A stretch of 51,135 nucleotides of DNA from a virus (lineage: Duplodnaviria > Caudoviricetes), in IMG/VR virus record IMGVR_UViG_3300045093_000075, positions 1-51,135 of that record; one strand, given 5' to 3'. This document shows positions 27,655 to 48,618 of this stretch, piece after piece (within the stretch, counting starts at the first letter, position 1; each line of letters opens with the position of its first letter). The notes under the pieces were generated by a model, which ran no database searches, was not told the DNA's origin, and saw only the letters and a list, made by a program, of their open reading frames with translations. Position numbers and translations under genes: made by a program.

Positions 27655-28047
27655 TCATAGCTCCAAAATGGCTCGGTACATATCGTCCTGGGCGACCTGC
27701 ACCAGAACGCGCCGGCAAAGTTCCGGCATGTCGATTTCGCGATTGCGGGCCTCATCGGCCAGCATGGTTCGGTGCCGACCGGCCAGCATCACCTTGACCG
27801 GCTTGTGCGTGTGCTCGCCCTCGCTGACCTTGAAGCCCCACTCGCTGAACATGGCGGTGATCAAGTTCGGAGTGCTGCCGTCGTTTAGGGCATTGCAGAT
27901 CGCCGCCGCGGTCATGCCCTGCCCGGCCATAACGCCGATCCTGAAGGCTTTGCGGTTGCTCCAGCGCTCGGTGAACAGAGGATGCCCAAGCCGCTCCTCC
28001 TCGCGCCCGAACATGCCAAGCTGCACTTCTTCAGAACGGCGGTTCAT
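27655..28047 (-). CDS. Hypothetical DNA-binding protein
   Basis: In operon; C-terminal RHH-like segment. Confidence 0.6.
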   Translation of the reverse strand: MNRRSEEVQLGMFGREEERLGHPLFTERWSNRKAFRIGVMAGQGMTAAAICNALNDGSTPNLITAMFSEWGFKVSEGEHTHKPVKVMLAGRHRTMLADEARNREIDMPELCRRVLVQVAQDDMYRAILEL

Positions 28048-30217
28048 CTAATGCCTCCGCCAATTCGCGTTTTACGTCCGCTGGAAGCTCAGGGGCAGGC
28101 TCTGGCGCGGGTTTGACAAACACTCGGTCCTCTTTGCCCGTCCACCAGATCAGGCCCTTCTCGCCTTCCCTGAGCCCGCGCTCGTTGTCGCGATCGATAA
28201 AGCCGGCGAGCTGGAGCTTCTTCCCGGCATCGGCAACTATTCGGCGCAACTCTCCGGCACGCTTTTCAGGCTCGCTCTCCGGCGCCTGATAAGTCCACTT
28301 CTTGCCCATCTCCGCCATGAAGGCCTTCCATGAAACGACGTGGCGACCCTTGGGGCATCCGGTGACGCCTACCGGCGCCGGTTCGCCTTCCCGAGCAATG
28401 ACGTCGCGCAAAGTTTGGAGCACCAGTGCCTGATTGAGGCTCAGTCTCCCGGTCTTGGTCTGCTCGTCATCGTCACCGTCGGGCTGGTCGACCACGCACG
28501 TCGTGATGGGCCGGTTGAGATCGTCGAATCCCACCACGACCTGGCGCAGCACGAACGGGATAGACCCACCGTTCTCGCCATCCTTGTTTTTGTCGAGCCG
28601 CATGCGACGGATCTTGCGGCCGTTGCGGTCTGTCTTGTCGCCGCTCTCCACCATAATCACATTGGTCAAGTCGCCGGTCTTGGAGCCGTGCCCACGAAAT
28701 CGGCCCTGTGCCGAGAGGTGATCCACCACCATGACCGTGCATTGGCACTCTTCTGCGATCCGCTCGATCCGGTCGATGACCTTGCCCATATCGAGGCCGC
28801 TGATCTCGTTCGCCCCGCGCGTGGCCTTGTTGAAGGTGTCGATCACGATCATGCGCAAGGGCTGCTCGTAGTGCTCGGCCCAGGCCTTCGCCTCGGCAAT
28901 GAGCGTGTCCGTGTCCTTGTCGTCGACAAAGAGGTTGATCTTCTTGGGCAGGATCAGCATCGGCACGCTGGCCGGGTCTTCGATGCCCTTGTCCTGCATG
29001 TAGCCCTGGACGCGCTTCATGAAACCACGGTCGCCCTCGCCCGTCTGGTAGACGACCAATCCTTGCATCACGTCTCTGCTCCAGAACTTGCGGCCCGTGG
29101 CAACGGCAAAGGCGAGCTCGATCATCAGGAACGATTTGCCGGATTGACTGAACCCGGCGAACGCGGCCGAGCCGCCGAGCTCAATCATGTCCTGCACCAG
29201 CCATTGGTGCTTCTTGGCTTCCTGGCCGACGTTGGAGAGGGTGACGGCGCCGAGCCTTGATGCCGGCGGCTTCGGCTTCCAATCCGGTAGGCCGTCTATA
29301 ATGCGCTGGAACTCATGTGCCGTACCGCCCGCTTCCACCCAATTGCTCAGATCGTGCTTGGCCGGGAAGTTCGGGACGTGATCGGCGAAGTTAAGGATGC
29401 GGATGCGGCGGGCGATGCCCTTGAGGCTCTTCGCCTTCGCCTCGCCGGCAGCGATACCCACATCGTCGTTATCGACCGGGATTACGACGTCGGCGTCTGT
29501 AAACAACGCGGCAAGCTCTGGCGTCCAGCTTTTGGCCCCACCCGAGTTGGTCGAAGCGTCAAAGCCGAGCTCGACCGCCGTGTCCGCGTCTTTCTCGCCC
29601 TCGGGCAACAGGATCAGCCGGCCCGCTTCGATGGCGAGCTCGAGCTGCTGGTGGCGATAGATCGTGTGGCCAATGCCGTCGAGGTTCCAGACGACATTTC
29701 CGGCGGCGTCCTTGCGCCTCTGGCGAAAGGTCTTGGCGACCTGCCCGTCCTTGCCCAAGCGCCAGGAGCCGTCAGGCAGCCGCCATTGGAACCGCACGAC
29801 TTGGTACAGCGGATTTCCGTCGGCATCGGTGTAGGTGTAGCCCTTGACCGCGACCTGCTTGGCTCCATCGTCGTCAGCGGGGCCGTGTGGCGACCGCTCT
29901 GGCTCATGGCGGATCTCAGGCGCGCTGCTACGCTCTTGGCGCTCCTGCGGCTTATCACGTTCTGCGATAAAGCCCTCGCGCTCCAGCCATTCGATGGCCG
30001 CCCCTTTGTCATCGCCAAGCCCGAGTTCGTTCTGAACTAGCTTGATGGTGCCGCCGCCGGCGTCGTTTTCAAAATCGTGCCACGTTCCCTTGTCGAGATT
30101 GACCTTCTTGGAGCCGTTGTTTCCCCAGCGCAGTTCGCTCCCGCGCTTCTCAGACGGCTTGCCCCAGAATGATTCCGCGACCGTTTCGATGAGAGCGGCG
30201 AAGTCGGCGTCAGCCAT
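28031..30217 (-). CDS. Primase-helicase (Toprim plus RecA/AAA_25 helicase)
   Basis: Toprim EGEKD and DND; Walker A GFSQSGKS; Walker B IVIDT; GGAGG RBS. Confidence 0.9.
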   Translation of the reverse strand: MADADFAALIETVAESFWGKPSEKRGSELRWGNNGSKKVNLDKGTWHDFENDAGGGTIKLVQNELGLGDDKGAAIEWLEREGFIAERDKPQERQERSSAPEIRHEPERSPHGPADDDGAKQVAVKGYTYTDADGNPLYQVVRFQWRLPDGSWRLGKDGQVAKTFRQRRKDAAGNVVWNLDGIGHTIYRHQQLELAIEAGRLILLPEGEKDADTAVELGFDASTNSGGAKSWTPELAALFTDADVVIPVDNDDVGIAAGEAKAKSLKGIARRIRILNFADHVPNFPAKHDLSNWVEAGGTAHEFQRIIDGLPDWKPKPPASRLGAVTLSNVGQEAKKHQWLVQDMIELGGSAAFAGFSQSGKSFLMIELAFAVATGRKFWSRDVMQGLVVYQTGEGDRGFMKRVQGYMQDKGIEDPASVPMLILPKKINLFVDDKDTDTLIAEAKAWAEHYEQPLRMIVIDTFNKATRGANEISGLDMGKVIDRIERIAEECQCTVMVVDHLSAQGRFRGHGSKTGDLTNVIMVESGDKTDRNGRKIRRMRLDKNKDGENGGSIPFVLRQVVVGFDDLNRPITTCVVDQPDGDDDEQTKTGRLSLNQALVLQTLRDVIAREGEPAPVGVTGCPKGRHVVSWKAFMAEMGKKWTYQAPESEPEKRAGELRRIVADAGKKLQLAGFIDRDNERGLREGEKGLIWWTGKEDRVFVKPAPEPAPELPADVKRELAEALDEPPF

Positions 30218-30434
30218 TGGCCGCCCTCCGCTGGCCCTTGCCACGCAATCCACCTTCCATCTCCAGCGATTTGAGCGTCAGCGCAGCCGCATGAAGGCTT
30301 TCAGCGCGAGCCCGCGCCGATACGGCCTGTCCGTCCTTCCGCTGCTCGTGAAACCACGCGGCATCGTCGGCGCCCTGTGCCGCCTTCTCAACGGCGATCC
30401 TCTGCCATTTGATCGGGACACTCACGACCGGCAC
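30210..30434 (-). CDS. Hypothetical protein
   Basis: Overlap-coupled in operon. Confidence 0.6.
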   Translation of the reverse strand: MPVVSVPIKWQRIAVEKAAQGADDAAWFHEQRKDGQAVSARARAESLHAAALTLKSLEMEGGLRGKGQRRAANG

Positions 30435-30604
30435 CTGTCCATGATCTCGTCGCAGATGGTTTCCAGTACGTCCCGGTCCCGATCGAGGAAGGGATTGGGG
30501 CGGGCGCGGTGATGGGTGTCCAGATCGCGGTCTATCCGGCGCACGGCGCGGCGGAGGACCTGGACCTTTTCGGTGTCGTCGGGGGCGTCGAGGCAGAGCG
30601 TCAT
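30422..30604 (-). CDS. Hypothetical protein
   Basis: ATGA coupling to upstream gene. Confidence 0.6.
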   Translation of the reverse strand: MTLCLDAPDDTEKVQVLRRAVRRIDRDLDTHHRARPNPFLDRDRDVLETICDEIMDRCRS

Positions 30605-31509
30605 GCCGGCACCCTGATGCGAATCATTCCTGTGGGCACATTCGTTCCGGCCTCGGCGAAGCTCGCCACCGGCAGGTCGCGTTTCCTACGGTTGAATTCG
30701 CGCATGTAGGCGGCATTCTTCTTGAGCCGAGCGGCCCGTTCCTCTGGGGTTTCTCTCGCCCAGCGCTGGCGCCGCTTCTCGTTGTGCCGCTTGCGCCTCT
30801 CGTCTTTGGTCAGAGCCGATGGAGCCAAGGAGCGGACGTAACCAACATCGGTTTCAGTCACGACACGGAAATGCCATCCGCGCTCAGCGCAGAAGGTGCG
30901 AGCCGCTGCGAACTTGGCCACGTTGAGTGGCAAACCTGTCATTGCGGAAGGCTTGATTTCCTCAATGGCGGTCGAGCCATCCTTTGATGTGACGATGAGG
31001 TCGGGGACATAGCGTCGCACTTTTCCTTGCGGGTCGGTATATCGAATGCGATGCGGGCATCGACCCCAATGCAAAACGGCGTCGTCTGCGTCGAGCTGTC
31101 CCATGCGCAGGAACTCAAGGCTGGATTCCGCGAAGTTTCGTTCCCCGGTCTTTGCGCTCGTGTGCCAAAGCCTGGATGAGGACCGTGACCGAGAATGCCC
31201 TCTAGCAATAGCGAGGGAAGCCGCTTCACTCATGTTGCGGATCACGCCGGCGGCAACGGCCCATTCTTTTACGGTGAAGGGCTTCAGCCCCATCTTCTCC
31301 GCTGTTGCGGCCGCGCTTAGACCACCAGCATAGAGTGCTAACGCCTCCATCCGAACGCTATCTGCATAGGTCGCGCGTCGATTGCGAATTGGCACTCCCG
31401 CCGCCTTGAGCCAACGCTCGACTGTCTGCCCTGTTACGCCAGCAGCTTTCCCCGTCGCATTCATAGACGCGCCGGACTGGTAAAACTCGATTGCCTCTTC
31501 CTTACGCAT
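30601..31509 (-). CDS. HTH-HTH plus TnsA-like PD-(D/E)xK endonuclease; probable free-standing homing endonuclease
   Basis: Two HTH repeats; ESSLE, RRYVPDLIV, EEIKP and KFAAARTFCAERGWHFRVVTE motifs; C-terminus duplicates methyltransferase end. Confidence 0.8.
   Translation of the reverse strand: MRKEEAIEFYQSGASMNATGKAAGVTGQTVERWLKAAGVPIRNRRATYADSVRMEALALYAGGLSAAATAEKMGLKPFTVKEWAVAAGVIRNMSEAASLAIARGHSRSRSSSRLWHTSAKTGERNFAESSLEFLRMGQLDADDAVLHWGRCPHRIRYTDPQGKVRRYVPDLIVTSKDGSTAIEEIKPSAMTGLPLNVAKFAAARTFCAERGWHFRVVTETDVGYVRSLAPSALTKDERRKRHNEKRRQRWARETPEERAARLKKNAAYMREFNRRKRDLPVASFAEAGTNVPTGMIRIRVPA
30625..30681 (-). repeat. Copy 2 of 19-codon methyltransferase C-terminal segment
   Basis: RDLPVASFAEAGTNVPTGM; 16/19 aa identical to 31526-31582. 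Confidence 0.9.
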
Positions 31510-32821
31510 GCTTCACCACCTTCAGCATGCCGGTCGTTACATTCGTACCTGCTTCCGAGAACGAACCGACTGGTAGGTCTCGCCAAACTCCGTCAGGAAA
31601 GTCTTTGTCGATCAGGCCATGATCATATTTTGCAGTCGCGGGGAGAATGCTCACCAGCACCCCGCCGGGCTTCAGGAATGCGAAGGCGTGCTTGACGTGG
31701 CGCATGTACAATTTTCCGAAAAACGGCGGGTTCATCACAACCGTGTCGAACTCGGCGCGTGGCGGCTGTTCGAGGAAATTTCCCGTAACGACGCTATGAC
31801 CTTTTGCCTTGGCCTGGGCGGCGCGACCGGCGTGGTATTCGATGCCAAGAGAGATGTGACCACGCTTGCGCAGGGCATCGAGGATGCGACCGTCGCCACA
31901 TGACGGCTCCAGGATGCGCAACGGAGCCGGCGGGTTGTAACGCCACTCAGGCAGGTTCCAGACCCCGGCGAACTCCATGGCCGCATCAATGGCCGCGTCG
32001 GGCGTCCAATAGAACTGGAGGTCTTTAGCGACGGCAGTGCTTGGTGCTTTCTCCGGCGCGTCCGGGTCAACGTCGGGCAGGACATCGCCGTAAAACTCGG
32101 CGAGGCCACGGTTGATATCGAGCAGCGTGTGCTCATCGAAAATGACGTGGGCATTGCCGTTCTTGAACTTGCGAACCTTGAGGCCGCGCAAATCGGCCTC
32201 GCCTTCGCTCGCCGTGAAATACGCATGAAGCTTGTCGACCTCGGCAAAGTCATCATGGTCGACAAGAGGTTCGCCGCGGTAGGCGGCCAACGCATTGGCG
32301 ATATCGCGCACCTTATCTCGACCGTACGATCCATAACCGCCAAAGCCGGAAATGATGACCCGCTTGGGCAGACCTTTGACGCCGATCTTGACCTTGCTGT
32401 GGGATCGATACGCCGGATCAAGGCCGGCGAAGGTTTCAGCCAGGCCGCGCAAGATATGCTGGCGAGGGTTTTCCAGGTAGGGCCCGAAGGTAGCTCGAGC
32501 ATTGTCGAGCGTCAGCGGCGGCGGGGCCTCTATGGTGCGCTCAAACAACCGCTTATCGTTAGCGCTTGCTATCCGCTCGATCTGGAGCCGGTTATAGAGC
32601 GCCTTCCAGCCAGATTTGAGCAGGTTGCTCCGCAGGTGGCTTTCGTGGACATAGCCGCGGTCGATCGCCGACCCCACGTATGTGCCCATGACGCAGCCGG
32701 CGGTCTCGATGGCAGTCTTGGCGTCCTCGAACGCCTTGACGGCGTCAGCAACGGCGGCGTCCTTTTCCTCGTACTCTGAAATGATGTCGAGAGCGGTTCT
32801 CTGAGGGGCAATGGCGTTCAT
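31502..32821 (-). CDS. DUF4942-domain amino-methyltransferase (probably N6-adenine DNA)
   Basis: FKNGNAH DUF4942 motif; QFYWTP, LEPSCGDG (motif I), VMNPPF (motif IV). Confidence 0.88.
   Translation of the reverse strand: MNAIAPQRTALDIISEYEEKDAAVADAVKAFEDAKTAIETAGCVMGTYVGSAIDRGYVHESHLRSNLLKSGWKALYNRLQIERIASANDKRLFERTIEAPPPLTLDNARATFGPYLENPRQHILRGLAETFAGLDPAYRSHSKVKIGVKGLPKRVIISGFGGYGSYGRDKVRDIANALAAYRGEPLVDHDDFAEVDKLHAYFTASEGEADLRGLKVRKFKNGNAHVIFDEHTLLDINRGLAEFYGDVLPDVDPDAPEKAPSTAVAKDLQFYWTPDAAIDAAMEFAGVWNLPEWRYNPPAPLRILEPSCGDGRILDALRKRGHISLGIEYHAGRAAQAKAKGHSVVTGNFLEQPPRAEFDTVVMNPPFFGKLYMRHVKHAFAFLKPGGVLVSILPATAKYDHGLIDKDFPDGVWRDLPVGSFSEAGTNVTTGMLKVVKHA
31526..31582 (-). repeat. Copy 1 of 19-codon methyltransferase C-terminal segment (recoded)
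   Basis: RDLPVGSFSEAGTNVTTGM with many A/T-ending codons. Confidence 0.9.
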
Positions 32822-32822
32822 G

Positions 32823-33377
32823 CTACGCCTCCATTAGCGCCGGGCGGGCCTTAATGGCCTTCCGGTAGTCGAGTTCTGGGTTTTGCTGAGCGGCCATGTG
32901 GCACCACAGCGCCAGGGCATCGCAGCGATCGGGCTGGACATCGCCAATCGAGAGCCAGCCCCGGCGCGCCACTTCGGCCTGCACCAGTGTCTTGGGGTCG
33001 CCGCCGAAGTTGCCGCCCTTGCCGATGAAGGTCTTGCGGGCCGTGCTCGACGCAATGAGATGCGCCCTACCCGGCAACTTCGACTTCACAACGCCCCTGA
33101 GAACTCCCTGGAGGCCCAAAAGCATTGCCTGTGACGCGGAGTTGGTGAACCCGCCGCCACTGGCCTTGATGGGGGCCTCTATGGCCACGATGGCGGGGTT
33201 GAGAACCGCCATCTGCCGGTGCAGCCAGATCATGCCGGTGCGAAAAATGTCGTCCTCGGTATCGCCTTCGCGCTTCCAAGGCTCGAAACCGCTGATTGGC
33301 TTTTCGGTCGGCAGACCGAACGCCCATCCGGTCACCTTGCCGCTGACATCGAGTGCGAGGATCGACAGGCCGTCCAT
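32823..33377 (-). CDS. RuvC-like Holliday junction resolvase
   Basis: ILALDVSGKVTGWA, VAIEAP and DRCDALAL acidic residues. Confidence 0.75.
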   Translation of the reverse strand: MDGLSILALDVSGKVTGWAFGLPTEKPISGFEPWKREGDTEDDIFRTGMIWLHRQMAVLNPAIVAIEAPIKASGGGFTNSASQAMLLGLQGVLRGVVKSKLPGRAHLIASSTARKTFIGKGGNFGGDPKTLVQAEVARRGWLSIGDVQPDRCDALALWCHMAAQQNPELDYRKAIKARPALMEA

Positions 33378-33817
33378 CAGTTCAGCACCGTGCTCGACGC
33401 CATTTCCTCAAGGACAGCATTGCCCTCGGCCTGCTCGGCTTCCTCGCGCTCCTGCGCTGCTTGCTGCTCGGCCCGAGCCGCAGCTTGAGCGCTATTCTCG
33501 CCCTCTCTCGGCGTCAGAAAACTGAATTGGCCAGCGGCATCAGCCCACAGCTCGACCATCTCTTCGGGCACGCCCTGGGCGATGCGCTGCATCTGGCGCT
33601 CGAGTTTGCGCGTCTTGAGCGAGGCGTTCAAAATCTCGCTGGGGATTTTGAGCTCCTGCTTGGCCATCTTCTTCTTGCGCTTCTGCGCTTCGCGGATTTT
33701 GGAGGCTTTGCCGCGAGCCGACGCCATGATCGTTTCGATCTCGTCGTCCATGCCCTCGATCTCATCGATGACGGCCTGAAAATCTTCGTCTTCATACAGG
33801 TTTGAAAGCTGGGTCAT
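33377..33817 (-). CDS. Coiled-coil hypothetical protein (possibly GapR-like)
   Basis: ATGA coupling; acidic N-helix followed by basic helix. Confidence 0.6.
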   Translation of the reverse strand: MTQLSNLYEDEDFQAVIDEIEGMDDEIETIMASARGKASKIREAQKRKKKMAKQELKIPSEILNASLKTRKLERQMQRIAQGVPEEMVELWADAAGQFSFLTPREGENSAQAAARAEQQAAQEREEAEQAEGNAVLEEMASSTVLN

Positions 33818-36378: not shown

Positions 36379-37569
36379 TCAGCCTTCCGCTTCCGCGCCC
36401 CAGGCGTCCCATCCGTCGCGCTGCGCCCGAGCGAACATCTCGAGGCGAGGCACCGTGGGGTAAAGGCGCTCAATGATTTCGTGGAATTGCTCGGGCTTGG
36501 CGCTGTGTGCACCAACCGGTGCCGATATAGCGCTCTCGGGCTGCGTTCCTGGCTCGGGCGCGGGAATCCCGCCACGGGTGCCGATCAACAAAAGCTCATG
36601 CTTGTTGCGCGCCCAATAACCAGTGCCGAGGCGATCCTTCACCCAGATCAGGTGCGACTTGTAGGTGAAGCCCCAAGCCTGCATGACGGACAGAGCTTGC
36701 GGCAACATCGGCGCAGTGGCCCAGAGGAACAGGACACAATCACTCGCCGAGGGCACCGAAAGGGCCTCGATTTCATCGAGGGTCATCGTCGGATAGTGGT
36801 TGTCTGCGGCCCGGTCCATGCCGGTGGTTCGGCTGTAGGGCTCAAAGCGCCAAGGCGGATCGGCGAGGATCACGCCATACCGCTGTTCGCCGAGGCGGGA
36901 GGCGGCTGCCCGGATATTCTCCGCAAGCGCAGCTTCCTTTTGCTGCCGGGTCTGGCCTTTGGCCGCTGCCTTCTCAGCGCGAATAGCCTTGGCCCGCTCA
37001 AGGATTTCCTTTTCGCCACGAGCAACGATCTCGACCTGTTCGGGCTTTGGCAGCGTGGCAATCTCGGCGGCTGCGGAAACCGAAGCTGTTCCAGAATCGA
37101 CGGCAGCGACCAGTTCGGGAGCGCCGTCACGCTCGACCTTCCGCGCTGTCTCGATGGAACGTTCCGAAACGCTCAATGCAGAAGCTACTTCGGAAGTCCG
37201 CAAATTTGCGGAGTTATCCTCGGCAGGCCTATGCGCCGGCATCTTGGCCAGCCTCGCCGCCACCATCGCCCGCTGGCTTTCCGTCAGATGCCGGCGCTTG
37301 AGATTGAGGCTTATGACGAGCCCGAGCGGGTCATCGCCCTCGTATTCGACGCGCGGATACGCAATGCCCAGCTCCCGCGCAGCCATGTAGCGATTGCGAC
37401 CGTCGAGGATCATGCCCTCGTGGAAAACAATAGGCTCACGGACGCCGTGCTGGCGAACGTCCTCGACCAATTCCTTGAAGGCCTCGCCCTCGATCCAAGG
37501 AAAGATGTCGGCATATGGATGCCATTTCGCGCCGTCCTGCGGGACAGATTCGTGCATTACCGCGCTCAT
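36379..37569 (-). CDS. ParB-like N-domain fused to MT-A70 family adenine methyltransferase
   Basis: ILDGRNRY..A and NLKRRHL (ParB-like); ADPPW, LFLWAT, WGFTYKS, HSAKP and LEMFAR (MT-A70). Confidence 0.92.
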   Translation of the reverse strand: MSAVMHESVPQDGAKWHPYADIFPWIEGEAFKELVEDVRQHGVREPIVFHEGMILDGRNRYMAARELGIAYPRVEYEGDDPLGLVISLNLKRRHLTESQRAMVAARLAKMPAHRPAEDNSANLRTSEVASALSVSERSIETARKVERDGAPELVAAVDSGTASVSAAAEIATLPKPEQVEIVARGEKEILERAKAIRAEKAAAKGQTRQQKEAALAENIRAAASRLGEQRYGVILADPPWRFEPYSRTTGMDRAADNHYPTMTLDEIEALSVPSASDCVLFLWATAPMLPQALSVMQAWGFTYKSHLIWVKDRLGTGYWARNKHELLLIGTRGGIPAPEPGTQPESAISAPVGAHSAKPEQFHEIIERLYPTVPRLEMFARAQRDGWDAWGAEAEG

Positions 37570-44829: not shown

Positions 44830-44955
44830 ATGAAACCTCAACCCAAATGGACCATCGAGCGCGGCCAATGGGTCCAGCGCCCCATGATCCTCACCACTAA
44901 CCCATTCAAGGAAAACCCCGCCTCCCCAGGTGCGGCCAAAACCGGAGAAGGATGA
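44830..44955 (+). CDS. 41-aa hypothetical protein
   Basis: GAGG RBS; fills operon gap. Confidence 0.4.
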   Translation: MKPQPKWTIERGQWVQRPMILTTNPFKENPASPGAAKTGEG

Positions 44956-45665
44956 TGACGACAGACACATTGGCACGCGAAGCTCCGGCCCACGGCAAGA
45001 ATATTTCGCCGTTCGAGGAAATCGTTTTCGAAATCGATGAGCTTTATGCTGAGGCAGCGAATTGGGCCGACGGCACCCCAATCGAGAACCAGGAGCAGTG
45101 CGATGCACTGGACGCCCTCGATAAGGCGCTGCTCGCCGCCGACAAGAAGCGCGAGGCGCTGCGCAAAGCCGAAGTCAAACCGCTCGACGATGCCAAGAAG
45201 GTCATTCAGGCCCAGCACAAGCCTGTCGAGGCCAAGGTTGCCCGCGCCCGGGACGTGCTGAACGGGCCGCGCTCGGAATGGAAAGCCAAGATTGAGGCGG
45301 AGAAACGCGCCCGAGCCGAACAGGCAACCCGTGACGCGGAGGAAGAACGCGCCAAGGCACTTGCGGCCATGCAGTCCAGTTCCGGCGATCTGGAGGCTCG
45401 GGAGCGGGCCGAGGAGCAGCTTGAGCTTGCCAAAGAGGCCGAGGCGTTCGCCAAGCGCGAGCAGAAGCGCGCCGATACGGGCAATGGACTGCGGACCTAT
45501 CACCGCGCTGAACTGACCGATCTTCGTACAGCCATCGGCCACTACTGGAAGGCCCAGCCCCACGCTTTCGAAGCGTTGGTCAATGACCTCGCCGCCAAGG
45601 ACGTGCGCGCCGGCAAGCGCGAAATCCCCGGCTTCAACATCATCACCGAACAGAGGGCCATCTAG
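44952..45665 (+). CDS. Coiled-coil recombination-module protein (Gam/Gp157-like position)
   Basis: Long coiled coil, VKPLD..K and C-terminal G.REIPGF motifs; upstream of bet. Confidence 0.7.
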
Positions 45666-45667
45666 CC

Positions 45668-46567
45668 ATGTCGCACGCAGTTGCCACCATCGAGCAGGGC
45701 CGCGCCGTTGCGTCGCCGGCCACCACGTTCTCGAACCAGCAGGTTGAGCTTATCAAGCGAACTATTGCGAAGGGATCATCGGACGACGAGCTCCAGCTTT
45801 TCCTCCATCAATGCAAGCGCACCGGCCTCGATCCATTCGCGCGCCAGATTTACGCGGTGAAGCGCTGGGACGCCCAGGCCAAGCGCGAGGTCATGTCGGT
45901 GCAGACCAGCATCGACGGCTTCAGGCTCATTGCCGAGCGGTCAGGCGTCTATGCCGGCCAGGTCGGGCCTTTCTGGTGCGGTCCAGATGGTCAGTGGGTC
46001 GACGTGTGGATCGATGACAATCCGCCCGTCGCCGCTAAGATCGGCGTGCTGCGCTCTGACTTCTCGGAACCGTGCTTTGGTGTGGCCCGGTTCAAATCCT
46101 ACGCTCAGACAAAGAAAGACGGCGGCCTGACCCGCATGTGGTCGGTGATGCCGGACGTGATGATCGCCAAGTGCGCCGAAGCCTTGGCATTGCGCCGCGC
46201 CTTCCCGCAGGAACTTTCCGGGCTCTACACTGCCGATGAGATGGCACAGGCCAGCAATGGCCGGGAAGAAGCCCAGGAATCGCAGGAAGCTGCGCAGAAG
46301 TCCAAGGCTGCGTCGCGGGCCACGTATGAGCGCATCAGCAAGGCAAACCGCGCCTGTGAGACGCTGGACGCTTTCAACAAGCTGTGGGGGCATCCTGCCA
46401 CCGAAAAGGCCGTGATGGAGCTTCCGAACGACTGGCAGCGCACCATCCTCGACGAGAAGGCCGACAAGTTCTCGGAACTGTCGCCCCCCGAGCTCGAGCA
46501 GGTCGAATACGAAACGGCAGGCGCGGACGATTTCCCGTTCGGCGATGACTTTCCCGGAGACAGATAA
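45668..46567 (+). CDS. bet: Phage recombination protein Bet (ssDNA annealing)
   Basis: [27 protein letters not shown] and [16 protein letters not shown]...GLYTADEM. Confidence 0.93.
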
Positions 46568-47482: not shown

Positions 47483-48184
47483 ATGTCTGATCTCCCGATT
47501 TCCTTCTCCGGGCCGATGGTGCGCGCAATCCTGCGTGAGATCGAGCACCCCGGCACCGGCAAGACGCAGACGCGGCGGGTCTTAATGAAGACGCGAAACG
47601 GAACGCCCGTTGAAATGCACCCATCCGGGGACGCAAACCGCCACCCTTTCAACGACCCCGATCAATGGGGCTTCCCATACTATGATCGGAGCACAGATAG
47701 CACCGAAATAATGCGGCTATCGGATTACGCGCGGCGGCGATACGCGCTTGGCGACCGCCTCTATGTCCGAGAGCATTGGCGGGCCGAGGAGGATTTTGAA
47801 GTGGTCGCGCCGCGCGACATGCTTCCTGATACGCCTATTGCCTACGAGGCCTCGCCGTCCGTTGCTCACATGGCAATGGGCCGCTTCCGCCAAGCCATGC
47901 ACATGCCGAAGTGGGCGAGCCGGATCACGCTTCTCGTCACCGATGTTCGCGTCGAGCGGCTGCAGGACATCGGGACCGGGGACGCGATGGCGGAGGGCAT
48001 AGCTCATGAAGGGCCAGGATATGCCGCTCCCGGCATGTCTTGGGTTGGTTCGCCAGAACTGGCGTTCCGTTGTCTCTGGCAGGCGATCAATGGCGATGGC
48101 TCTTGGGATGCGAATCCGTGGGTTGCCGCCTACAGCTTCAAGCCCGTCCTCGGCAACATCGATCAGGTCGGGGAGGCCGCATGA
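47483..48184 (+). CDS. ASCH-like phage protein
   Basis: FSGPMVRAIL...KTQTRR, GDRLYVRE, HMPKWASRITL.V..VRVERLQDI and WDANPWV. Confidence 0.8.
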   Translation: MSDLPISFSGPMVRAILREIEHPGTGKTQTRRVLMKTRNGTPVEMHPSGDANRHPFNDPDQWGFPYYDRSTDSTEIMRLSDYARRRYALGDRLYVREHWRAEEDFEVVAPRDMLPDTPIAYEASPSVAHMAMGRFRQAMHMPKWASRITLLVTDVRVERLQDIGTGDAMAEGIAHEGPGYAAPGMSWVGSPELAFRCLWQAINGDGSWDANPWVAAYSFKPVLGNIDQVGEAA

Positions 48185-48618
48185 TCCGCTCCCGCAAGAT
48201 CCTCCGGCACGCCAAGGGCCAGCCGTGCCAGTTGCGTCTCCCCGGCATCTGCAACGGCGATCCCGAAACCACCGTCTGGTGCCACCTCAATGGTCACGGC
48301 AAGGGCATGGGGATCAAGACCCATGATGTGCTCGGCTTCTTCGGGTGCTCTGCGTGCCATGCAGCCTATGACCAAGGCAAAGGCCGCGCCGAACTCATTC
48401 CGGCAGTTCTGGACGCTGTGTGCGCCTCGTGGGTGGTATTGATCCGCGACGGCATCATCTTCGTGCCGCAGGACGACGAGAAGCCCTCTCACAAACGCCC
48501 CGTGAAGCCCCGCAAGCCCAAGGGCGAGCGAACGCCGATCCAATCGCGGAACGATTGGCCGTCCGGCCGCAAACTGCAATCCCGAAACACCCTCAAGCGG
48601 GAAAGGACTGACGCATGA
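48181..48618 (+). CDS. DUF1364 family putative nuclease
   Basis: AKGQPCQLRLPGIC...ETTVWCH...GMGIK..D...CSACH. Confidence 0.85.
   Translation: MIRSRKILRHAKGQPCQLRLPGICNGDPETTVWCHLNGHGKGMGIKTHDVLGFFGCSACHAAYDQGKGRAELIPAVLDAVCASWVVLIRDGIIFVPQDDEKPSHKRPVKPRKPKGERTPIQSRNDWPSGRKLQSRNTLKRERTDA

Follow-up and report, generated by a model that had tools for sequence, protein, structure and literature searches.

The stretch of DNA analysed here, the window, is the whole 51,135-nucleotide (51-kb) provirus record IMGVR_UViG_3300045093_000075, which encodes terminase, portal, capsid and tape measure proteins, an integrase and an exonuclease/RecT pair. On its minus strand, the gene for an adenine DNA methyltransferase is followed directly by that for a TnsA-like nuclease, and the last residues of the methyltransferase recur at the end of the nuclease. 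The unit considered below, a putative homing element, consists of the methyltransferase 3' end, some 72 codons starting right after the catalytic NPPF, and the nuclease, which is fused in frame to a native-type methyltransferase tail. In the list of its features, and throughout, alleles of the methyltransferase gene with and without the unit are termed occupied and empty.

31502..32821, minus strand: host gene, a DUF4942 plus M.TaqI-like N6-adenine DNA methyltransferase of 439 residues (Pfam DUF4942, E 2e-32; best folds for its model, M.TaqI)
31718..31735, minus strand: MNPPF-F, the catalytic motif, which is probably half of the target site and putatively the left crossover (of all DNA blocks, the best conserved in empty alleles)
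31703..31717, minus strand: GKLYM in place of the usual GRHYV, a putative immunity patch (15 bases identical between the window and a second locus, L020)
31502..31720, minus strand: replacement 3' end, apparently carried by the element (residues 368-439), with copy 1 of the duplicated tail at 31526-31582 (tract clade at 97/93 across unrelated gene bodies)
31502..31509, minus strand: 8-nucleotide (nt) overlap ATGCGTAA of the methyltransferase stop with the nuclease start (same overlap in the window and L020)
30601..31509, minus strand: nuclease gene, 302 residues, with two helix-turn-helix (HTH) domains and a TnsA-like domain (Pfam PF08722, E 8e-17, and HTH_28)
30601..30681, minus strand: copy 2, a methyltransferase tail of native type that continues the nuclease reading frame, the putative right homology arm (one residue from the end of empty-type P0032)
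30422..30604, minus strand: downstream open reading frame (ORF) of 60 residues, ATGA-coupled to the captured tail (no family match in the scan)

Copy 1 comprises methyltransferase residues 414-432 (RDLPVGSFSEAGTNVTTGM, 31526-31582) and copy 2 nuclease residues 277-295 (RDLPVASFAEAGTNVPTGM, 30625-30681), both on the minus strand. The two are identical at 16 of 19 residues, 5 of 19 codons and 38 of 57 bases, and a recount returned the same residue and codon figures as an earlier reading made from the letters and their ORFs (the sequence-only reading). The six codon pairs listed there, in which the A-ending codon stands in copy 1, are also correct, but the list was selective, as three positions show the opposite, with GGA, ACA and GGA in copy 2 against GGT, ACC and GGC in copy 1. 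The match between the copies is not due to chance, because a search of the window with the full methyltransferase recovers copy 2 at E 3.4e-5 and because methyltransferase tails, differing from one another, end 8 of the 10 non-self homologues of the nuclease. The coupling of the nuclease-fused copy to the next gene, which had likewise been noted earlier, is seen as an ATGA overlap of stop and start at 30601-30604. Two assemblies of DNA runs, which are possibly the window's own source, span 29000-33500 without difference, and reads from four runs across the region show neither variants nor joints. One contig of an RNA library spans 29200-32860 unspliced, although such contigs may derive from DNA and so provide no evidence on splicing or expression. 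No sigma-70 promoter was found at 30300-32200.

The methyltransferase carries the S-adenosylmethionine-binding motif LEPSCGDG at residues 304-311 and then NPPF at 364-367, as in the M.TaqI-like N6-adenine class, and M.TaqI provides the folds nearest to its structural model. In this model the ORF is complete without splicing, and the last two strands (residues 412-415 and 430-436) are supplied by the duplicated block, so that loss of this block would be expected to break the fold and a replacement would be needed. The nuclease comprises HTH domains at residues 2-35 and 51-83, a TnsA-like PD-(D/E)xK domain at 142-219, basic helices at 235-278 and the captured tail at 277-302. Its identity as an HTH-HTH-TnsA protein, first proposed from the letters, is supported by the PF08722 match (E 8e-17), by the two HTH domains and by a Foldseek search with the nuclease model, in which Tn7 TnsA gave the best matches (E 2e-5). 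Residues E128, E132, P169-D170 and E183-E184-x-K186 are invariant in all 11 aligned nucleases, and the catalytic motif is predicted to be intact. The captured tail is modelled with low confidence (predicted local distance difference test, pLDDT, below 50 over residues 279-302), which is consistent with its being a passenger of the nuclease.

Judged by sequence comparison, the methyltransferase is a chimera of a host body (residues 1-367) and an element-borne 3' end: the body is 81% identical to that of empty-type P0013, the tract only 68%. In all four occupied lineages [FY]GKLYM takes the place of YGRHYV after NPPF, with further common marks up to the tryptophan before RDLPV, and L371 and M373 are found in only 5 and 6 of 206 methyltransferases, respectively. 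With FastTree, applied to all 207 rows of at least 400 residues (four shorter rows were dropped), the occupied rows are scattered in the tree of gene bodies and joined at 0.90 in the tree of tracts. With IQ-TREE, applied to 30 chosen rows (the occupied rows, their nearest neighbours and outliers), the five occupied rows need four origins in the body tree, where a single clade is rejected (approximately unbiased test, p 2.6e-41), and join, together with P0135, at 97/93 in the tract tree. One conserved gene is present, then, as occupied and empty alleles in a patchy distribution that is discordant with the host gene tree, as is typical of homing. The sequence-only reading had envisaged a synonymous replacement tail of 19 codons within 30601..31582; the replacement found here runs to about 72 codons, is non-synonymous (YGRHYV to FGKLYM and more) and begins near 31720 rather than 31582, which makes the earlier coordinates too narrow.

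The same arrangement, with the same 8-nt overlap and a duplicated tail, was verified in DNA at L020, in an otherwise unrelated prophage. DNA homology between the window and L020 is confined to the methyltransferase and nuclease genes (67%) and the downstream genes differ; the nucleases are the better conserved, at 202 of 276 identical residues against 190 of 343 in the host gene bodies, and synonymous sites are saturated. In IMG/VR the pattern FGK[LW]YM gives a single locus besides the window, namely L020, so that with the window included the nuclease is present at 2 of 2 FGK[LW]YM loci and 0 of 75 YG[RK]HY loci (Fisher p 3.4e-4, the loci not being independent). When window residues 366-439 are used as query, the three best non-self matches are P0045, P0132 and P0133, and their longest contigs equal in length those of nucleases P0006 (14239), P0004 (4277) and P0002 (25019), respectively, the P0133/P0002 pair being nearly identical to the L020 genes. 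The body of P0045 has empty-type P0116 as its sister (87%; 100/98), and P0045 itself ends like the window (...MLKVVKHA), while the tail of P0006 is exactly the last 19 residues of P0116; in addition, the sister nucleases P0003 and P0004 (100/99) have different tails. From these patterns it follows that the cargo is some 72 codons long and that the tail is renewed from the recipient. The identity of the P0006 tail with the P0116 end also sustains the earlier proposal of a mobile nuclease gene that brings along a 3' end to restore the host gene and takes up the native tail in its own reading frame. At L020, where three methylase-like genes cluster, a second small methyltransferase-like gene lies upstream and matches the VMNPPF DNA at 21 of 22 positions (L020:2425-2446), also reading NPPFF.

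Empty alleles were read by eye at 16 methyltransferase loci (13 distinct), none of which has the nuclease among the next ORFs; at 9 of the 13 distinct loci an ORF begins at an ATGA overlap at the gene end, and several end in ...IRVPA or ...IRSAA. A scan of IMG/VR for NPPF-YG[RK]HY gave 120 loci out of an estimated total of about 140, with no match to the nuclease at any of the 120, 75 of which have at least 1000 nt downstream, and with an ATGA or GTGA ending in 68 of the 117 alleles having a stop. The unit is thus rare, at 2 of about 140 IMG/VR alleles. The end closest to copy 2, out of 235 methyltransferases, is that of P0032, which differs by one residue in 26 and identifies copy 2 as a native-type end; when the empty alleles are compared with both copies, a check suggested by the sequence-only reading, they match copy 2 better than copy 1, as it had predicted.

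Searches with the nuclease yielded no match in viral contigs (single-sequence search), in 401 genomes of one alphaproteobacterial order or in four genomes carrying empty alleles, and no full-length match in annotated phages and plasmids; one metagenome scan returned L019 only, a relative lacking a methyltransferase tail, and scans with P0225 and P0007 gave no further occupied locus. Methyltransferase tails do occur in 2 of 150 distant representatives, P0225 and the fragment P0270; the longer tail of P0225, a more distant nuclease, matches a different methyltransferase subfamily and possibly represents an independent capture of the same motif. No duplicated upstream-gene tail was found behind the nuclease in L019, L021, L022, L023 or L024 (the last of which ends inside the nuclease).

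The codon usage of copy 1 had been read as deliberate recoding, for which the evidence is weak. At common residues, codon identity with the empties is 0.295 for copy 1 and 0.40 for copy 2 in the window, and 0.26 and 0.43 in L020, values as low as those of copy 1 being found in 5 of 96 and 0 of 96 empties, respectively. Of 78 pairs of empty alleles, 16 have as few codons in common as the two copies (4 of 15), and the third-position GC content (GC3) of copy 1, 10 of 19, is as low in 20 of 96 empties. Ordinary synonymous saturation thus appears to explain most of the codon divergence between the copies, and selection against homology, conferring resistance or avoiding deletion of the nuclease between repeats, is possible. 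A foreign origin of the tract from a low-GC source, which was also considered, is unsupported, with a tract GC3 of 0.67 and 0.70 compared with 0.71 in empties.

The protected site had been placed at RDLPV, but on comparative grounds NPPF-YGRHYV is the better candidate; it lies about 200 bp upstream, 208 nt before the nuclease start. In the 13 empty alleles, the most conserved 24-nt window covers VMNPPFYG (mean pairwise identity 0.934), and the YVKHV stretch right after it ranks third (0.85). Between the window and L020, 15 bases are identical across GKLYM, but the remainder of the tract agrees at only 4 of its 26 synonymous codons. The methyltransferase P0069 carries the FGKLYM patch alone on an otherwise empty-type end, which fits cutting at NPPF-YGRHYV with a short conversion. 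Because of the conserved VMNPPFYG, the identity across GKLYM, the restriction of FGK[LW]YM to L020 besides the window and the patch in P0069, NPPF-YGRHYV appears likelier than W-RDLPV as the cut site. P0069 could, in its own right, be a resistant allele that conversion produced without bringing in the nuclease. A homing element of the same kind whose target is W-RDLPVGSF, as in the yeast WHO elements, retains a minor share of the overall probability; copy 1 would then resist by synonymous changes and copy 2 by loss of the upstream half of the site, and the tract as far as NPPF would be hitch-hiking co-conversion. Such a target would suit the greater distance of copy 1 than of copy 2 from the empties at both DNA loci (0.295 and 0.26 versus 0.40 and 0.43), the start of WHO fragments at the cut (accessible portion of PMC7282813) and the in-frame losses inside DLPVGSF in three nuclease tails, those of P0003, P0005 and P0006 starting further in with 3-7 residues of DLPVGSF absent, a point that leaves room for a cut there as well as at NPPF-YGRHYV. 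The native tail copy begins at or after RDLPV, and the replaced tract about 140 bp earlier. However, GKLYM is kept in all four occupied lineages although the conserved LKPGG/SILPATA block between the two sites should allow crossovers, the copy-1 sequences of the window and L020, which agree at only 4 of 14 synonymous codons, contain no common resistant sequence while all 15 bases of GKLYM agree, and RDLPV falls outside the eight most conserved DNA windows of the empty alleles.

In the mechanism that we favour, translation of the nuclease would be coupled to the methyltransferase stop, and the nuclease would act on phages that share the cell or superinfect it, cutting their empty alleles, most probably at NPPF-YGRHYV, and sparing occupied alleles through FGKLYM at the target. 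Repair would proceed via the phage exonuclease and annealing protein, with the left crossover in the conserved VVMNPPF and the right one in the nuclease-fused tail of 60-80 bp; exonuclease/annealing proteins tolerate short, diverged homology. The recipient would gain the 3' end of the element and the nuclease, its own last codons becoming the new tail of the nuclease, and the frame would be retained because the stop of the tail is coupled (ATGA) to whatever gene comes next. The tail would in this way act as a portable homology arm and would permit homing between mosaic phages that lack a common downstream gene. The candidate repair machinery lies outside the mobile unit:

44952..46567, plus strand: exonuclease and RecT/Bet-like annealing protein, with a presumed role in repair (PHROG 10477, E 1e-44; PHROG 2780, E 8e-78)

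The anatomy of the unit, its recurrence in unrelated prophages, the discordance between body and tract, the turnover of tails and the intact catalytic residues are all read from sequence, and together they make a splicing-free homing element with 3' replacement the probable explanation. It is rather unlikely that no homing is involved and that a nuclease-methyltransferase cassette, either restriction-modification-like or a useful moron, has been spread by ordinary recombination with the tail as a passive relic. The adjacency of the nuclease to an adenine methyltransferase, the recombination genes encoded by the prophage itself and the rarity of the unit would all suit such a cassette; however, only the last 72 codons travel and the N-terminal body does not, the local host gene supplies the tail anew (the P0006 tail and P0116 end), and relatives of the nuclease occur in many unrelated contexts without a methyltransferase. 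It is very improbable that the unit is a spliced intron or intein, or what remains of a Tn7-like element or insertion sequence, the two tail copies then being its target-site duplication. Pfam and Foldseek do name TnsA, but terminal repeats are absent, a search for DNA repeats does not pick up the two copies, and neither TnsB nor TnsC was found among the scanned neighbours (part of the window ORFs). Rfam gave no intron match (its one match, a speF leader below threshold, lies outside the unit), no intein/Hint family was found on the nuclease or on 20 scanned relatives, 17 of them long, and the methyltransferase needs no splicing to be complete.

Several observations weigh against the homing element as preferred here. 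Only two occupied loci have been seen as DNA, and the adjacency of P0045 to P0006 and of P0132 to P0004 is deduced solely from their equal longest contigs. A near-identical empty allele of the window prophage was not found, the closest body being 81% identical and no joint appearing in the four runs. The tract tree, unlike the body test, is partly circular, as three rows were retrieved by tract likeness, and it has 45 columns; a clade of the five occupied rows without P0135, which nests among them, appears in only 1% of its IQ-TREE bootstraps. P0135 is a divergent methyltransferase that has most of the element tract and no known nuclease partner; its ending is of the INTT type, like the tail of nuclease P0007, and it may belong to that subfamily as an occupied allele, or may have arisen when the nuclease was lost between the repeats. 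Two of the 10 close nuclease homologues (P0010 and P0011) and the L019 relative have no methyltransferase tail, and at L020 both copies end in ESGTNVPTGY, so that copy 1 is not always purely element-derived. Finally, TnsA nicks one strand in Tn7, and a double-strand cut is therefore not assured.

Relatives of the nuclease also occur in other settings. In 27 of 138 distant relatives (P0226-P0363; L021:3643-5994) the nuclease core is embedded in frame in proteins of 700-5200 residues, many of them polyvalent proteins with LPD, ART-PolyVal or Strawberry-notch domains, and similar sequence just upstream of the core in eight of the embedded relatives suggests in-frame insertion at a common site. 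Related nucleases at L022:2962-4939 and L024:2751-4480 immediately follow phage genes that are homologous to each other, end near HNFCQC or HPWCGC and may be a second target gene; these genes have no Pfam match and no duplicated tail was found for them, and we take them to resemble head morphogenesis proteins. Elsewhere in the window, a fusion of ParB-like and MT-A70 methyltransferase domains (36379-37569, minus strand) is a second methylase of the prophage, an HNH endonuclease (PHROG 131) lies near the recombination genes (48040-48618, plus strand), and a Toprim-like/AAA_25 primase-helicase fusion is encoded two genes downstream of the unit (28031-30220, minus strand), a similar gene directly following the empty methyltransferase in L003.

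The known systems are compared here as described in the accessible portions of the cited sources. Free-standing Seg/Mob endonucleases of T4 represent intronless homing (PMC2988022, PMC13565253) and resemble the phage unit, as proposed here, in having a nuclease outside any intron or intein, a cut hundreds of bp away in a conserved neighbour gene, co-conversion and promoter-less coupling to an upstream transcript. They differ in being GIY-YIG or HNH proteins in intergenic positions that need conserved genes on both sides, whereas the phage nuclease has another fold and the genes downstream of the window and L020 units differ; the accessible text of PMC2988022 contains no mention of a duplicated host tail. 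The ShiLan HNH insertion in actinophage methylases (PMC11855218) reaches a phage methylase by another route, since it sits inside the gene and is read through in frame, its HNH lies out of frame, and no end is replaced. The PD-(D/E)xK homing endonucleases I-Ssp6803I and I-Bth0305I, the latter listed as intron-encoded, belong to the same superfamily as the phage nuclease but to other families, and PF08722/TnsA is listed only as a transposase subunit in the accessible part of the survey concerned (PMC3424549). The unit also departs from Tn7-like elements, with no TnsB or TnsC found among the scanned neighbours and no terminal repeats, and from introns and inteins, with no ribozyme or Hint match and a complete host ORF. 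No description of a TnsA-like homing endonuclease or of phage end replacement was found in the literature searched, to which subscription journals were mostly out of reach, so that novelty is provisional; nor is this arrangement described in the accessible text of PMC6221350, PMC10448965, PMC12724721, PMC10448857 or PMC5512222.

The closest parallels are eukaryotic. Homing without intron or intein by replacement of a 3' end, which the sequence-only reading proposed, has already been described from yeast, as a third, rare class of homing element (bioRxiv 10.64898/2026.08.13.744650), and from fungal mitochondria. Yeast WHO elements at FBA1 consist of a resistant 3' part of the host gene and an endonuclease gene, the old 3' end being pushed downstream as a homology arm (PMC7282813; bioRxiv 10.64898/2026.08.13.744650). 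The phage unit likewise has a replaced host 3' part upstream and a displaced native 3' fragment downstream, and both systems have discordant 5' and 3' trees, a target overlapping active-site codons (putatively so in the phage unit) and no splicing. In contrast, WHO elements are nuclear, encode a LAGLIDADG/zinc-finger protein, form tandem clusters and leave an untranslated fragment of about 400 bp, whereas the phage unit resides in a prophage methyltransferase rather than FBA1, has HTH domains and a TnsA-like nuclease with no LAGLIDADG or zinc finger, carries a tail of 45-80 bp translated in frame, has a duplication shorter than the replaced tract and shows no cluster. Mobile ORFs of fungal mitochondria that carry a foreign C-terminus (Allomyces atp6; Glomus atp6, atp9, cox2 and nad3; Ophiostoma rps3; PMC3630166, PMC4019555) are alike in that an endonuclease ORF brings a foreign 3' end into a gene, whose native C-terminus stays behind downstream; it is this native copy, and not the inserted one, that matches relatives. 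They differ in using LAGLIDADG or GIY-YIG proteins, in residing in organelles and in having the native tail tabulated as a separate feature after the ORF, some being fused to the upstream host gene; the phage nuclease is separate from its host gene upstream and fused to the native tail downstream.

From its sequence features the phage unit appears to work like these two systems without being a member of either, given its other nuclease family and short, translated tail. We put at about even the chances of a fuller proposal. In it, the unit would be a WHO-like homing element, the first from a prokaryote, and would found a family of TnsA-like homing endonucleases as its type member; it would cut catalytic-motif codons of a phage methyltransferase, replace all that lies downstream and use the last codons of its victim as a translated, renewable homology arm, so that it could home between mosaic temperate phages with a single gene in common, and sister branches would insert in frame into giant polyvalent proteins. 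The predicted targets are short and directly testable. If the proposal is correct, many stand-alone phage genes annotated as 'TnsA N-terminal domain' would be suggested to be selfish nucleases, and both the within-gene mosaicism of phage methyltransferases and the spread of homing genes among temperate phages without common flanking genes would be explained. TnsA-like proteins would then join the folds of homing endonucleases, and the 3'-replacement strategy known from yeast and fungal mitochondria would have arisen independently in bacterial viruses, with an unrelated nuclease fold.

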